From positions 2,656,001-2,720,000 of the forward strand of contig CM000150.2 of NCBI GenBank assembly GCA_000004695.1: a stretch of 64,000 bases of DNA, read 5' to 3'. This DNA comes from Dictyostelium discoideum. Taxonomy: Eukaryota. The notes beneath the pieces were generated by a model that saw nothing but the letters and a program-made list of their open reading frames with translations, was not told the origin of the DNA and ran no database searches. The position numbers were made by a program, and so were the translations under genes. Positions 1,392 through 62,873 of the stretch are shown here, piece after piece; position 1 is the first letter of the stretch, and each line of letters starts with the position of its first letter.

Positions 1392-11176
<9,785 letters not shown>

Positions 11177-57376: not shown

Positions 57377-57557
57377 ATAAAAAAAAAACTTAAATTGGTA
57401 AACTTGAAATGGAATTGTTTTTCTTGAGTGGGTATGAATATGAATAAATAGATTACTCGGATTTGAAATATTCTATTAATATGGAACAATTGTACTGGAT
57501 TTTAATTTTTTTTTTTTTTTTTTTTCCCAAAAGAATTCTGTTTAATAATAATCATAT

Positions 57558-58296: not shown

Positions 58297-59189
58297 TTTT
58301 GTACAATTTTATTTAAATTTTTATTTTTTTTATTTTTAATAATTAATAATTATTTATTTATTTATTTTATCTTTTTTTTATTTTCTTTGCTGAATGTTAC
58401 TTATAAACACCACTTTTCATTCAACACTTTATTTTATTTTTTTTATTATTGTTATTGTTTTATTTAATTTTTTTTATTTTAAATTTTTATTTTTATTTTT
58501 ATTATTTTTATTATTATTTATTTTTTATTTTAATTTTTTATTTTTATTATTATTATTAATTTCTTATTTTCTAAATATTATTAATAGATTAATAATAATT
58601 TTATTTGAAAATGGGTTTTTTTTTTTTTAATTGGTTAAAAATGGGTGGAAGATAAAGAAAAAAAAAACACAGTGTGGTATTTTTGTTATTTTCTTTTTTT
58701 TTTTTTTTATTATTGTCAATAAATGAAAAAAAACACCCCAAATAATGGTTTTTTATATGATCAATATGTTTTGGAAAAATAAAAAAAAATAAAAAATATG
58801 CAAAAAATAGTGGTGATTAGTTTTAGTAGTTTAGTGAACAAAAAAAAAAAAAAAAATAAAAAATAAAAAAAATAAAAAAAAACAAAAAATAAAAAAAAAA
58901 AATTAAAAAAAAAAAAAAAAAAATGTTTGACTTTGTGATGAAGATTTTTTAAGCCCATCAATTTTATTATTTACAATAAAAAAAAAAAAAGTTTTGTTTG
59001 ACTTTTCTCGGCAGACAATTGAAACTAAAAAGATATTTATAAAAAAAAAAAAAAAAGAAGATATTTATAAAAAAAAAAATAAAAGATATTTATAATAAAA
59101 GAAAAAATAGAAAAAAAAAAAAAAAGCGCCAAAGATATTTTATTATTGTCATTATTTTTCTATTATTATTATTTTATAAATTAAAAAGA

Positions 59190-59263: not shown

Positions 59264-60197
59264 GAGGCTGTTGTTGTTGTTGTTGTTGTTGGAATTGAGG
59301 GATGGCAGGGTTTTTCATTGGAAAACTTGGAGCAGTTTTTGGTGGTGAAGAGGTTGGTTTTGGTGGCACAGTGCCTAGTGATGGACTTGGTTTATTTTGT
59401 TGAAATTGAGGTTGTGGTGGAGGTTGTTGTTGTTGTTGTTGTTGTTGTTGCTGTTGTTGTTGAACCATTGGCTTTGCTGGTGCCTTTTGTTGTGGTTGTT
59501 GTGGTGGTGGTTGCTGTGGTTGTTGAGCTTGTTGTTGTGGTGCATTTTTAGCAGCAGCAGCAGCTTGAATCATAGCTTGTTTTTGCTTTTTCTTTTCATT
59601 TGTAACTAATACACCCATATTTTTATTGACATCTTTGTCATATAATGAATTACCAATACGATCACCAAACAATCTCAATGTTCTCTTTCTTGCATCTGAT
59701 ACTGCTTCCTGTAAAAATAATAATTAATAACAATAGTAATAATAAATTAGGGGGGTGTGTTAGATAAATGAATAATAGGATTGATTAATTGAATGAATTT
59801 ATTTATTTACCTTTTTAGCATTTTCAATAGCACTACCTTTACTGGGATGTTCAGTTGAACCATAACCAACATCCTCTTGAAAAGTACCATCTTTTAAAGT
59901 GACTCTAACGATTGCAGTTACACCAACTCTATAACGTACAATACCATTTACATTAACCTCTTCAATGAAATCTGGTGATAACTCTTTAATTGATGAACTC
60001 CAACCATTGAATTGAAATATTTTATTTGCTAAATTAATTGCTTTCCATGATTCTAAATATGATAATGTTGTACCACCAGGTCCTTGTCTAGTAGATACAT
60101 CTTCCAATGGTATATTTTCACTTAATATTTGTGAAATCGATGATATCTCTTCCTCTGTGAATGCTACTTGACCAAAAACTGTATTCATTTGTTCCAT
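59190..60197 (-). CDS. rad52: Rad52 homologue. It has 2 exons (60197..59811, 59708..59190) and is about 301 aa.
   Basis: The N-terminal domain ...LSYLESWKAINLANKIFQFNGWSSSIKEL...TAIVRVTLKDGTFQEDVGYGSTE...SAIENAKK|EAVSDARKRTLRLFGDRIGNSLYDKD matches the conserved Rad52 core (EGW..INLAN.IFG.NGWS; CTAIVRVTL.DGT..EDIGYG; KEAVTDALKRALR.FGN.LGNCLYDK). The AAG|GTAAAT donor and tttttacag| acceptor (102-nt intron) are in phase. The C-terminus is Gln/Pro-rich. Confidence 0.8.
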
Positions 60198-60336
60198 ATC
60201 TTTATATTATTTATTTATTTATTTATTATTTACAATTACTATTTACAATTTATTTATTTATTTATTATTTGTTTATTTATATATTTGTTTTTCTTTTTTT
60301 TTTTAAAATTATGTTTTTGTGGCGCCATTAAATTTT

Positions 60337-60376
<40 letters not shown>

Positions 60377-60651
60377 CACTTTTTATTTTTTTAATAATTC
60401 TCATTTTTCTGTGAATTATTGAAATTCTATTTGTTATTTTTTTTTAATTATTTTTTTTTTTATATCATTTCGTAAAATTACAATAAATTTATATTTGAAT
60501 ATAATCCAAAATACAAACTAAAAACAAAAAAAAAAATTATTATATAATTCCAATTTAATTGGGATTAAATAATCACCAATAAAAACTGACAAATTTTGAT
60601 TATTATCAAAATATAAAATAAAATCAAAAGATAATTTATTTTTATAATTTA

Positions 60652-60685
<34 letters not shown>

Positions 60686-62038
60686 ATACCAAAATAAAAT
60701 AAAATAAAATAAAATAATTAGAAAACTATTTACATTTGTTAATTTAAAATTTATTTACACTTGTTTTTTTTTTCACAAACAATTTTGTATTTTTTTTTTT
60801 TATTTTTTTTTTTTCCTATGGAACATTATCTTTGTTTAATTCACCTAATAATTTAATTCTTTTCTGATTGAGTAAATGCACAATGTATTCTAATGAATCT
60901 GGGTATGTTACTAACAAATCCTTCTGCAGATGTTTTTTTTTTTTTTTGCTTGTTGTGAGCGTTCAGTCACCGAATCTAAATATTCGTTGTCTTGTGGATT
61001 GATATTTGGTTTTTGAGCACCTTGGATTAAATTTGTAGGGCCAGTATGGCAAACACAATTCAGCTCAATGGCAGCACTAGATGACATAACCTTCTTTTTT
61101 AAATTGTGATCGCTAGATATCACTTTGGAAAGTACGTTATTTTCGAAGGTAGTATCTAGTGGTCACAATTTAAAAAAGAAGGGTATGTCATCTAGTGCTT
61201 ATTTTTTACATGAATTTTTAATTCTGGTGACTCAGCTGCTTGGTATTTAACTACTGCATATTTTAAACAATCTATTATTTTAAATAAAGAGTTGGTTTTT
61301 TTTTTTTTATTTTAAAAAATAAAAACTTACTGATTTTGTGATTATAGGCGTTTAAACGATTTTCAGCTTCAATTCTCTTTTCATTTTCTTCTTTTTTTTT
61401 ATTGATTTCTAATTCTTTTCTTCTACCTCCAACTTTTTTTTCCAACTCTTTTTGTTTTTGTATTTCTTTATTCATTTTATTGAGCTTACCTAGACGTTTG
61501 ATTATTTCATACGCTTAGTCTTCATGTAATAATTTTTTTTTGCATAAATTGAATGAATTACACTTTCTTTCCAATTGTCAATCGATTTTGAGAAAATCTC
61601 TTTCCTCTACCGGTTTTCTTAGAATTTAGTTTTTGAAGGTCTTTTTCAATATTCTCTTTACATGTTTTAGTTTCAAAATGACAATTTTCACAATAATCTT
61701 CACTTTCCGAAAATGATTCAGCTTCAAATCAATTTCTAAATTATCTTTTTCCTTTTTTTTAATTAAATGAATTTGATTATAAAAAATAACTAATTTTTTT
61801 TTTTAAAAAAATTTTTTTTTTTCATATCTGAACACTCATGCTGCATCATCATCTTATGAACTGATTCAATTAACTATTTTTTTTATAAAAAAAAAAAAAA
61901 AAAAATTGAAAATAAAAAAAAAAATGAATTTTTTTTTTATTTTAATTTTTAATTTTTAATTTTTTTTTTTTTTATATTATCTGTAATCAAATTAACAGTA
62001 AAAAAAAAAAATAATAATAATAATAATAATAATATAAT

Positions 62039-62873
62039 ATGAGCACTACAACTACAACAACTACAACCGAGAAACCAATTCAAGTTACTTTATATGATAG
62101 TAACACAATAAAACAAACTTTAGATGATTCAATAGTAAAAGTAAGACACACACAATTAATAATTAAACTTTAATAATAATCACATCACTCTTTTTTTTAA
62201 CCAAAATAAAAAAAATAAAAAATAAAAAAAAGACATAAATTTTTACTAACTTTTTTTAATTTTTCTATATTATATATAGTATGTAACATCAGCATTATCA
62301 TATACACAAAATCAAAAATTAAACTATACCAAAGTTTTATTTGGTTTAATTGGGTGTACTTTAGCAGCAATAGCACAATTTTATCCAATACCTTTCCCAA
62401 AGAATAAACCAGTTTTAATTTTATGTGTAGCATTGTATGTATAATATTATTTAATTTTAGCCAAACAACCAAATATATAAAAAAAAAATGAAAAAAAAAA
62501 AAAAAAAATCCTTATATATTTATTTATTTAAGATTATTAACAATATATTAAAATATAAATATAAATAAAAACACACAGATATGTAGTTATTAGTTTAATT
62601 TTATATTATATCAATATTTTCATTCAAAAGGATTATATATTACAAGCAAGTAAAAGTAATGATGAAATTAAAGTTGCAACTGTCTTACAAAAGTACGATC
62701 CAAACTATCAAGTAAAGATTGAAAATGCAAAAAATTCATCAATTAATGTACCATTCAGCAAATCAATTGACCTTTATTTCGATACTAAAGGTACATTTTT
62801 AGAATCAAATTTTCATAATGATTTATCTGTTCAATTTAAAAAATTTGCAAAGTTAAATGTAAAGGATAAATAA
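62039..62873 (+). CDS. spcs2: Signal peptidase complex subunit 2 (SPC25)-like protein. It has 3 exons (62039..62140, 62280..62434, 62594..62873) and is about 178 aa.
   Basis: Exon 2 encodes TM1 followed by the invariant YPIPFPKNKPVLILCVA. The GCATT|GTATGT donor and tttaattttag... acceptor at 62593 restore TM2 (FLILYYINIFIQK) and the C-terminal domain (DYILQASKSNDEIKVATVLQKYDPNYQVKIENAKNSS...FSKSIDLYFDTKGTFLE), which is collinear with metazoan SPCS2. I selected the splice sites by phase and homology, so they are less certain than for the other genes. Confidence 0.6.

Follow-up and report, generated by a model that had tools for sequence, protein, structure and literature searches.

Plant microRNA (miRNA) genes are said to be born by inverted duplication of protein-coding sequence, as Allen et al. 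reportedly described in 2004 (Nat Genet). MIR161 and MIR163 of Arabidopsis are examples of such genes, and plant miRNAs with this kind of birth initially target the gene family that founded them. Long inverted repeats also occur in foldback and miniature inverted-repeat (MITE) transposons of Dictyostelium, whose DNA transposon families thug, DDT, and Tdd are reportedly covered by Glockner et al. (2001). Here we examine a block of DNA between the rad52 and spcs2 genes of Dictyostelium discoideum, within a 64,000-nucleotide (nt) stretch of assembly GCA_000004695.1 (contig CM000150.2, positions 2,656,001 to 2,720,000; hereafter the window, in whose coordinates positions are given). We are confident that this block is the transcription unit of a published D. 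discoideum miRNA gene, ddi-mir-1181, which was born by a 50-nt inverted duplication in a decayed gene copy. The hairpin and its transcript were already known, having been published in 2018, and their recovery here is a rediscovery; what is new is the orphan gene family to which the decayed host belongs, the lesions (at least six) in the host copy, and the origin of the hairpin as a 50-nt inverted duplicate.

The published gene lies at DDB0232428:2717082-2717187 on the minus strand (Liao, Kjellin, Hoeppner, Grabherr & Soderbom 2018, RNA Biol 15:937; PMC6161686, Table S1). Its primary transcript was delimited from poly(A) RNA-seq coverage at DDB0232428:2716790-2717868, also minus (PMC6161686, Suppl. 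Table S3), and a T-rich motif was assigned to it at 2717988-2718014 (PMC6161686, Table S3). The position of that motif at window 61988 fixes the offset between the paper and the window at 2,656,000. Since this one offset maps motif, hairpin, and primary transcript, the published hairpin falls at 61082-61187 and the transcript at 60790-61868; the primary transcript therefore takes up the atypical block over its full length. Coordinates, strand, precursor, 5p and 3p products, primary transcript, and T-rich motif all match; the paper is silent on the decayed host gene, on the overlap with the annotated gene DDB_G0269408, and on the origin of the hairpin. The distance from the motif to the first poly(A) read downstream of it is 120 nt, and the motif sits in a promoter region that is divergently shared with spcs2. 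An earlier note on this DNA, made from the letters alone, had offered three candidates for the block without choosing among them, namely a structured noncoding RNA locus, a decayed gene, and a foldback or DNA-transposon relic; it neither identified the hairpin with a known miRNA nor named the strand in use. The first two proved right, and both apply together, the hairpin being the ddi-mir-1181 precursor and the block its primary transcript; the third was not borne out.

Both mature products match the window exactly on the published strand and at the published genomic position. For the dominant 5p product, the 20-mer was reported with 733 reads and the 21-mer with 96, the total being 842 in the wild type versus 115 in drnB- cells (PMC6161686, Suppl. 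Fig. S2). The 3p (star) strand had 2 Illumina reads, or 17 with SOLiD data included; 5' homogeneity was 98% for 5p and 95% for 3p; the level rose modestly from 7.65 reads per million at 0 h to 11.29 at 16 h of development; and a minor species of 22 nt, with 4 reads, abuts 5p at the base of the stem (PMC6161686). High-confidence miRNAs were defined by the criteria of Kozomara & Griffiths-Jones 2014 as applied in PMC6161686: a folding energy below -0.2 kcal/mol/nt, a 3' overhang of 0 to 4 nt (ideally 2), at least 60% of duplex bases paired, at least 10 reads per arm, at least 50% of reads with a common 5' end, and dependence on Dicer (DrnB). The locus lies within the limits for folding energy (-0.52 in PMC6161686), overhang, and pairing. 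In the 5p/3p duplex, 18 of 20 positions of miR-1181-5p are paired, and the overhang is 2 nt at the 3' end of 3p and either 1 nt (20-mer) or 2 nt (21-mer) at the 3' end of 5p. The published read counts, 5' homogeneity, and drop in drnB- cells bear on the read criteria, and these figures all come from PMC6161686.

Within that paper, the 3p sequence is given as GCGATCACAAATTTAAAAAGA in Table S1 and as GCGATCACAATTTAAAAAAGA in Fig. S2, the latter agreeing with the genome; the shifted A is probably a typographical or PDF-extraction slip and not a paralogue. The precursor line of Fig. S2 likewise contains a few machine-reading errors. Neither the name nor the sequence of mir-1181, on either strand, was found in the supplements of PMC11014262 that were searched. 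For a miR-1181 target reporter, the sequence would be AGTGGTCACAATTTAAAAAA.

The earlier note had described an inverted repeat at about 61063-61200 with 45-nt arms, 3 to 4 mismatches, and a 35-nt loop. Arms of that length are present at 61076-61120 and 61153-61197 with three non-Watson-Crick positions, and their spacing is 32 nt. Once weaker apical pairs are included, the repeat spans 61073-61134 and 61138-61199, with 62-nt arms that are 87% complementary around a 3-nt loop. Minus-strand RNA of 156 nt folds at -67.4 kcal/mol (-0.43 per nt; z = -12.3), as low as none of 200 shuffles, and the 127-nt hairpin alone folds at -65.1 kcal/mol (-0.51 per nt). In Rfam, searched at a permissive E-value, no family reached its gathering threshold; the best match was MIR861 at 34.3 bits versus a threshold of 70, with lower ones to mir-274 and MIR4378, and these generic miRNA-hairpin matches are uninformative on family membership. 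No Rfam model captures the mir-1181 hairpin. We found no other copy of the arms in the window at up to 3 mismatches, and none in the 12 Dictyostelium loci that were fetched for comparison (~110 kb).

Like mir-1180, mir-7102, and mir-1185, mir-1181 depends on DrnB and derives from a hairpin of more than 100 nt (PMC6161686). Its 22-nt minor species at the base of the stem resembles the offset pairs of mir-1180 and mir-7102, and its decayed host resembles that of mir-1184, which is annotated in a pseudogene (PMC6161686). Unlike mir-1180, mir-7102, and mir-1185 with their adjacent duplexes, mir-1181 is reported with one abundant duplex, and its phased product amounts to those 4 reads.

A minus-strand poly(A)+ transcript and a DrnB-dependent 5p of 20 to 21 nt with a uniform 5' end were demonstrated in PMC6161686. 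The primary transcript, polyadenylated and ~1.08 kb long, runs from 61868 to 60790 and starts downstream of the T-rich motif at 61988-62014 (PMC6161686). We propose that an RNA polymerase II-type enzyme makes it; the type of polymerase is one that we infer, because a cap has been demonstrated just for mir-1176 and mir-1177. The transcript folds into the 127-nt hairpin (61199-61073), from which DrnB excises the duplex of miR-1181-5p (61177-61158) and miR-1181-3p (61113-61093) with 2-nt 3' overhangs. The Dicer-like DrnB and the double-stranded-RNA-binding protein RbdB make up a nuclear microprocessor complex, and RbdB presumably takes part in the processing of mir-1181 as well. The 22-nt product abutting 5p suggests that dicing proceeds sequentially from base to loop. 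The 5p strand would be kept, most likely in the Argonaute AgnB, a proposal that draws on PMC11014262.

A DUSE-type noncoding RNA promoter was considered and rejected, as the DNA upstream of the hairpin is free of CCCAYAA elements on both strands. A Logan contig from short-read assembly (SRR28564541_1536, 1038 nt) corresponds to window 60783-61821, is collinear with the unspliced locus, and has ends nearly equal to those of the published primary transcript; it represents either the unspliced primary miRNA, if the run is RNA-seq, or genomic DNA with homopolymer bounds.

As judged from its alignments, the block is at the same time a transcribed, decayed copy of an orphan gene family encoding proteins of 291 to 325 amino acids (aa). 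A word-indexed protein search returned only P0001, the predicted protein of the locus itself, and an exhaustive HMMER search with P0001 found P0003 (291 aa), P0004, and P0005, to which P0006, P0007, and the full-length P0017 (325 aa) were added. The assemblies that hold the family members all carry the label D. discoideum or "cf. discoideum," the loci are non-syntenic to the window, and the family is restricted to the D. discoideum species complex. Pfam gave nothing above threshold for the concatenated open reading frame (ORF) pieces, P0001, P0003, or P0017, and no database record was found for a 66-aa unspliced ORF. Matches by tblastn are collinear from the N-terminal EDYCENCH..EKDLQKLNSKKTGRGKR to the C-terminal PDSLEYIVHLLNQKRIK, in frames -2, -3, -2, -1, -2, and -3. 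The fragmented minus-strand frames that the earlier note had quoted, including a 70-aa ORF at 60911..61123, are present as described, and these pieces run along the family proteins with shifting frames.

DNA alignments with the paralogues place at least six disabling lesions in the window copy (Table 1). Compared with an intact member, the start codon is lost, an in-frame TAA and the 50-nt insertion are present, and at least three further indels break the frame, leaving matches in three alternating frames. The collinear family matches, the lesions, and a shared intron thus mark the block as a transcribed, decayed family member; splicing of that intron, at 61272-61330, is predicted. An independent AX4-type assembly (L001, GCA_054883475.1) has the same base as the window at every position over 60377-61972, which means that neither the A15 run nor the broken frames are mistakes confined to GCA_000004695.1. 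Sequencing error in the A15 run was accordingly rejected as the cause of the frame break, the independent assembly being the same there and the paralogue alignment adding an 11-nt deletion.

Two public gene models cover parts of this copy. DDB_G0269408 is a fragment of the decayed ORF with its first five codons inside the 3' arm of the hairpin. In ACTFIT_007879 (P0001), one intron runs from GTAAAA, 9 nt upstream of the stem, into the 3' arm, which takes out most of the hairpin, and another skips the A15 frameshift; both are absent from the paralogues, where the sequence is coding. A multi-exon gene model, which by the earlier note's account would explain the ORF pieces, thus exists in this 145-aa form, but it is a gene-predictor workaround. 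Both models are probably pseudogene fragments and annotation artefacts. Neither the 58-aa nor the 145-aa model should be propagated as a protein, and the published label "intergenic" misses the overlap with DDB_G0269408.

The stem itself can be traced to the coding sequence of the host. In all four paralogous loci that cover the 5'-arm segment (L003, L004, L005, and L007), the sequence is continuous from ..GTAAAAAAAGAA to TTTGAAAACAAT.. (also read as ..GAAGTAAAAAAAGAA to TTTGAAAACAATCCACTTTCTAAAG..), and in both alignments (A1 and A2) the 5' arm faces a gap of exactly its own extent, 50 columns long. The boundaries of the inserted 50 nt are ambiguous by ~2 nt. Their removal in silico yields a single ORF, in which MNKEIQ..ELKIHVKN is followed directly by TFENNVLSKVISS..NCVCHTG..QQAKKKK. 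The segment comprising the 3' arm and loop region encodes FENNVLSKVISSDHNLKKKVMSSSA, which aligns to FENNPLSKVFSGEQSLAKKAVSSSAP of P0003 and FETYPISKVVSSEQSLVKNVVLSSAP of P0007, and the mirrored peptide read from the plus strand, ESTLFSKVVSSGHNLKKKGMSSSA, also matches residues 169-192 of P0003 by tblastn. Both arms are thus homologous to the protein-coding family, one in sense and one in antisense. From the gap in the paralogues, the restored ORF, and the mirrored peptide, it follows that the 5' arm is an inverted copy of 61073-61122, placed 27 nt upstream of its source.

We postulate a template switch or a fold-back replication error as the way in which the 50 nt of coding sequence were copied in inverted orientation. 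The duplication created the stem and broke the reading frame, and the other frameshifts, the stop codon, and the loss of the start codon came later. It is likely that mir-1181 is the first amoebozoan miRNA whose birth can be followed base by base, an intragenic fold-back duplication having made a pseudogene transcript into a substrate of DrnB at a locus that is still polymorphic across isolates of the D. discoideum complex.

Like the plant miRNAs of inverted-duplication origin, mir-1181 has arms homologous to a coding family, a long and near-perfect stem of the kind seen in miRNAs of recent evolutionary origin, and a lineage-specific locus. In contrast to the plant model, its duplication is 50 nt long, intragenic, and 27 nt from its source, not a whole gene segment at a new locus; its host itself became the primary transcript and decayed; and its complementarity to the founder family is at most 14/20 among paralogues of other strains.

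Comparison of rad52-spcs2 spacers, which was done by pairwise blastn because a four-way MAFFT alignment was unreliable in AT-rich stretches, with synteny anchored through members of the Spcs2 cluster, showed the full locus in AX4, no homologue in D. firmibasis or D. dimigraforme, and partial homology in the other assemblies (Table 1). For the hairpin kept in GCA_054859385.1 (L009), the folding energy is -62.5 kcal/mol (z = -12.3), and TTTTTTAAATTGTCTTCGCT stands at the place of 5p, so that the 3' half of the mature 5p differs from AX4. Both stems have the mismatches at stem positions 17 and 48 within the duplicated segment. We found no compensatory change between AX4 and L009, and the lineage-private differences all weaken pairing, a pattern of a perfect repeat decaying and not of a conserved structure. 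Since the locus is absent from sister species, deleted in GCA_054859355.1 (L010), and altered in its mature sequence in L009, we take the miRNA to be very young. It is probably also weakly selected or neutral, and it is without a demonstrated target.

Were the ORF pieces real exons, the block would be a functional protein-coding gene (DDB_G0269408 or ACTFIT_007879) with the hairpin in or over an intron, in the manner of a mirtron. The NCBI model does offer 145 aa, three introns, and an ATG start; its first intron, at 61272-61330, is canonical (GTAAGT...AG) and conserved in the paralogues; and other D. discoideum miRNAs, mir-1180 and mir-7102, are intronic (PMC6161686). The public models disagree, however, at 58 versus 145 aa, two of the introns required are missing in the paralogues, where the sequence is coding, and no Pfam domain is present. 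Relative to the 325-aa member, the start is lost, a stop lies in frame, and at least four indels break the frame, and L009 and L010 carry large and different deletions; we regard a functional protein gene as very unlikely. The mirtron was rejected, given splice sites that lie off the hairpin ends (the sole predicted intron starts 9 nt before the stem and ends in the 3' arm) and that have no counterpart in the paralogues. A foldback element or MITE-type DNA transposon relic inserted between rad52 and spcs2 would account for an inverted repeat that is long and near-perfect and for the lineage-specific block around it, and one paralogue (L005) lies beside a DDE_3 transposase gene while the identical P0017 protein occurs on 5 contigs. 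Against such a relic, the paralogues lack just the 5' arm and have the 3' arm and loop as collinear coding sequence; removing exactly 50 nt restores the frame; neither the rest of the window nor any of the 12 loci fetched holds another copy of the arms; and the stem has no target-site duplication on its flanks (..GGC/AGCAC...GTGCT/TAT..). Unlike a foldback or MITE transposon, mir-1181 also appears to be single-copy, has no terminal repeats bounding a mobile unit, and has one arm that is ancestral coding sequence, which leaves the relic a negligible probability.

Several observations weigh against our reading of the block as a young miRNA gene transcribed from the minus strand. Expression, strand, and DrnB dependence rest on the single paper PMC6161686, in which 3p passed the 10-read threshold only through older SOLiD data and in which the label "intergenic" conflicts with the overlap between the hairpin and the start of DDB_G0269408. 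The plus strand folds more stably, at -84.9 kcal/mol versus -67.4, a difference of ~17 (z = -15.7; none of 200 shuffles was as low), and a T-run, CTTATTTTTT, follows the stem, as if a functional RNA antisense to the ORF pieces were made from the plus strand. The plus-strand RNA owes its better fold to the six transition mismatches, five of which are G.U pairs on that strand and one on the minus strand. Three of these transitions are AX4-private substitutions in the 5' arm (polarised against L009), two of which lie inside mature 5p and cause the mismatches of the duplex. The 5-to-1 split reflects these three substitutions in one arm and is not significant (one-sided binomial ~0.11); the skew toward the plus strand is probably chance. 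The abundant reads (TTTTTTAAATTGTGACCACT) are exact on the minus strand and differ at 2 positions from the plus-strand arm (TTTTTTAAATTGTGATCGCT), the better plus-strand fold being therefore incidental, and the poly(A)+ transcript was assigned to the minus strand (PMC6161686); a plus-strand product has next to no chance of being right. The comparison assemblies, for their part, are automatically annotated and ~10% different from AX4 in this spacer, so what we call within-species polymorphism may be variation between cryptic species. Complementarity to the founder family is also low: the best matches were 14/20 for 5p and 13/21 for 3p, mostly in AT-rich introns, among five paralogous genes, all of them from strains other than AX4. 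These matches give no indication that miR-1181 targets its founder family. We consider it unlikely, though less so than the other alternatives, that miR-1181 is a selected regulator with a specific target in trans, for instance an unrelated mRNA or a gene of the parental family in AX4. Its processing is precise, 98% of 5p reads sharing one 5' end, with DrnB dependence and developmental regulation (PMC6161686). The initial targeting of the founder family by plant miRNAs of inverted-duplication origin also favors such a role. On the other side stand the absence of the locus in D. firmibasis and D. dimigraforme, its deletion in L010, the altered 3' half of 5p in L009, the lack of compensatory stem changes, the low paralogue complementarity, and the normal development of drnB- cells (PMC11014262).

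Amoebozoan miRNAs are almost all species-specific, and mir-1181, read as a young miRNA gene, offers one concrete birth route, a short inverted duplication in an expressed but dying gene copy. If this is true, the locus would capture, at one moment, how miRNA "modules" are rapidly gained and lost, as Edelbroek et al. 2024 inferred without a mechanistic explanation. The natural variants (altered 5p and deletion) would allow the effect, if any, of a young miRNA to be tested. The reconstruction of its birth, together with the present, altered, and absent series across isolates, is modestly novel.

The genes on either side are as the earlier note had named them. On the minus strand, rad52 (PF04098, E = 1e-52) has its start codon at 60197, and on the plus strand, spcs2 (PF06703, E = 5e-33) has its ATG at 62040. 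The relative GC richness that the note had remarked on is likewise real, with 22 to 36.5% GC in 200-nt windows over 60800-61700 versus 9 to 16.5% at 60200-60800 and 61800-62000.

Table 1. Features of the mir-1181 block (window coordinates) and rad52-spcs2 spacers of related assemblies (lengths)
Feature	Position or length	Strand	Basis or remark
pre-mir-1181 hairpin	61073..61199 (127 nt)	minus	repeat analysis and folding; published precursor 61082-61187
50-nt insertion (5' arm), inverted duplicate of coding 61073-61122	61150..61199	minus	absent from L003, L004, L005, L007
3' arm (61073-61122) and loop region (61123-61149), ancestral coding	61073..61149	minus	encodes FENNVLSKVISSDHNLKKKVMSSSA; paralogue alignment
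Mature miR-1181-5p, TTTTTTAAATTGTGACCACT, dominant product	61158..61177	minus	exact window match
miR-1181-3p (star strand), GCGATCACAATTTAAAAAAGA	61093..61113	minus	exact window match
pri-mir-1181 primary transcript	60790..61868	minus	PMC6161686 Table S3 and offset; GC 22-36.5%
T-rich putative pri-miRNA promoter/transcription start site motif, ending in G	61988..62014	minus	reverse complement CAAATTAACAGTAAAAAAAAAAAATAA starts at 61988
Decayed family copy, near N-terminus to stop codon	60816..61751	minus	tblastn with P0003, P0004, P0006, P0007; alignments A1 and A2; P0017
ORF pieces, changing frames	61751-61518, 61725-61597, 61568-61331, 61266-61198, 61147-60935, 60957-60856, 60944-60816	minus	tblastn
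Lesion 1	start ATG to AAG, beside 19-nt gap relative to L006	minus	DNA alignment
Lesion 2	1-nt frameshift after GRGKRF	minus	DNA alignment
Lesion 3	in-frame TAA, LLHED*AYE	minus	DNA alignment
Lesion 4	50-nt insertion (5' arm), 61150-61199	minus	DNA alignment
Lesion 5	one extra A in A15 run	minus	DNA alignment
Lesion 6	11-nt deletion	minus	DNA alignment
Ancestral spliceosomal intron (splicing predicted), GTAAGT...AATAG	61272..61330	minus	read from sequence; position and both ends conserved in L003, L005, L007
DDB_G0269408, AX4 annotation, 58-aa hypothetical protein	60911..61087	minus	P0002 = XP_645944.1 / Q55E37
ACTFIT_007879 (P0001), NCBI model, 145 aa, three introns, starts at ATG	60816-61475	minus	automated annotation
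Spacer, window (AX4)	1842 nt		full locus
Spacer, D. firmibasis (L008)	558 nt		no homologue
Spacer, D. dimigraforme (L012)	551 nt		no homologue
Spacer, "cf. discoideum" (L011)	1542 nt		homology near spcs2 only
Spacer, D. discoideum GCA_054859385.1 (L009)	1432 nt		hairpin kept; without window 61314-61722
Spacer, D. discoideum GCA_054859355.1 (L010)	1510 nt		without window 60858-61625, hairpin included

Over 8 kb, the window and the second AX4-type assembly differ only in the lengths of long homopolymer A/T runs, at window 57523-57525, 58855-58856, 60371-60376, and 61973; six extra T in a ~40-nt poly-T run at 60340-60377 are one example. Either the runs are genuinely polymorphic in length or the assemblies are uncertain in homopolymers.

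In the family, P0004 (L006 6001-6631, GCA_054859235.1) is most closely related to the window copy, with ~70% amino-acid identity over NCVCHTG..QQAKKK. It is flanked by C2-domain and SBDS genes, at a locus that is not syntenic with the window. Missing from it is the stretch from the end of the intron through the KYAVVKYQAAE exon, the 5' arm, and the loop to halfway into the 3' arm, which makes it a further decayed copy with an independent deletion. The P0017 protein of "Dictyostelium cf. discoideum" is identical in four accessions on five contigs, and the L005 paralogue (3984-5669) directly adjoins its DDE_3 transposase gene; the orphan family may be multi-copy or tied to mobile DNA in some genomes.

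A second inverted duplication occurs at the start codon of P0003 (L003 5946-5974 and 5989-6017, GCA_054859385.1), with perfect 29-nt arms and a 14-nt loop. One of its arms is the coding sequence around the start codon, TGTGAGGTCAACATGGAAAAAGACCTCAA, which hints that the family is prone to fold-back duplication or that this is another young hairpin.

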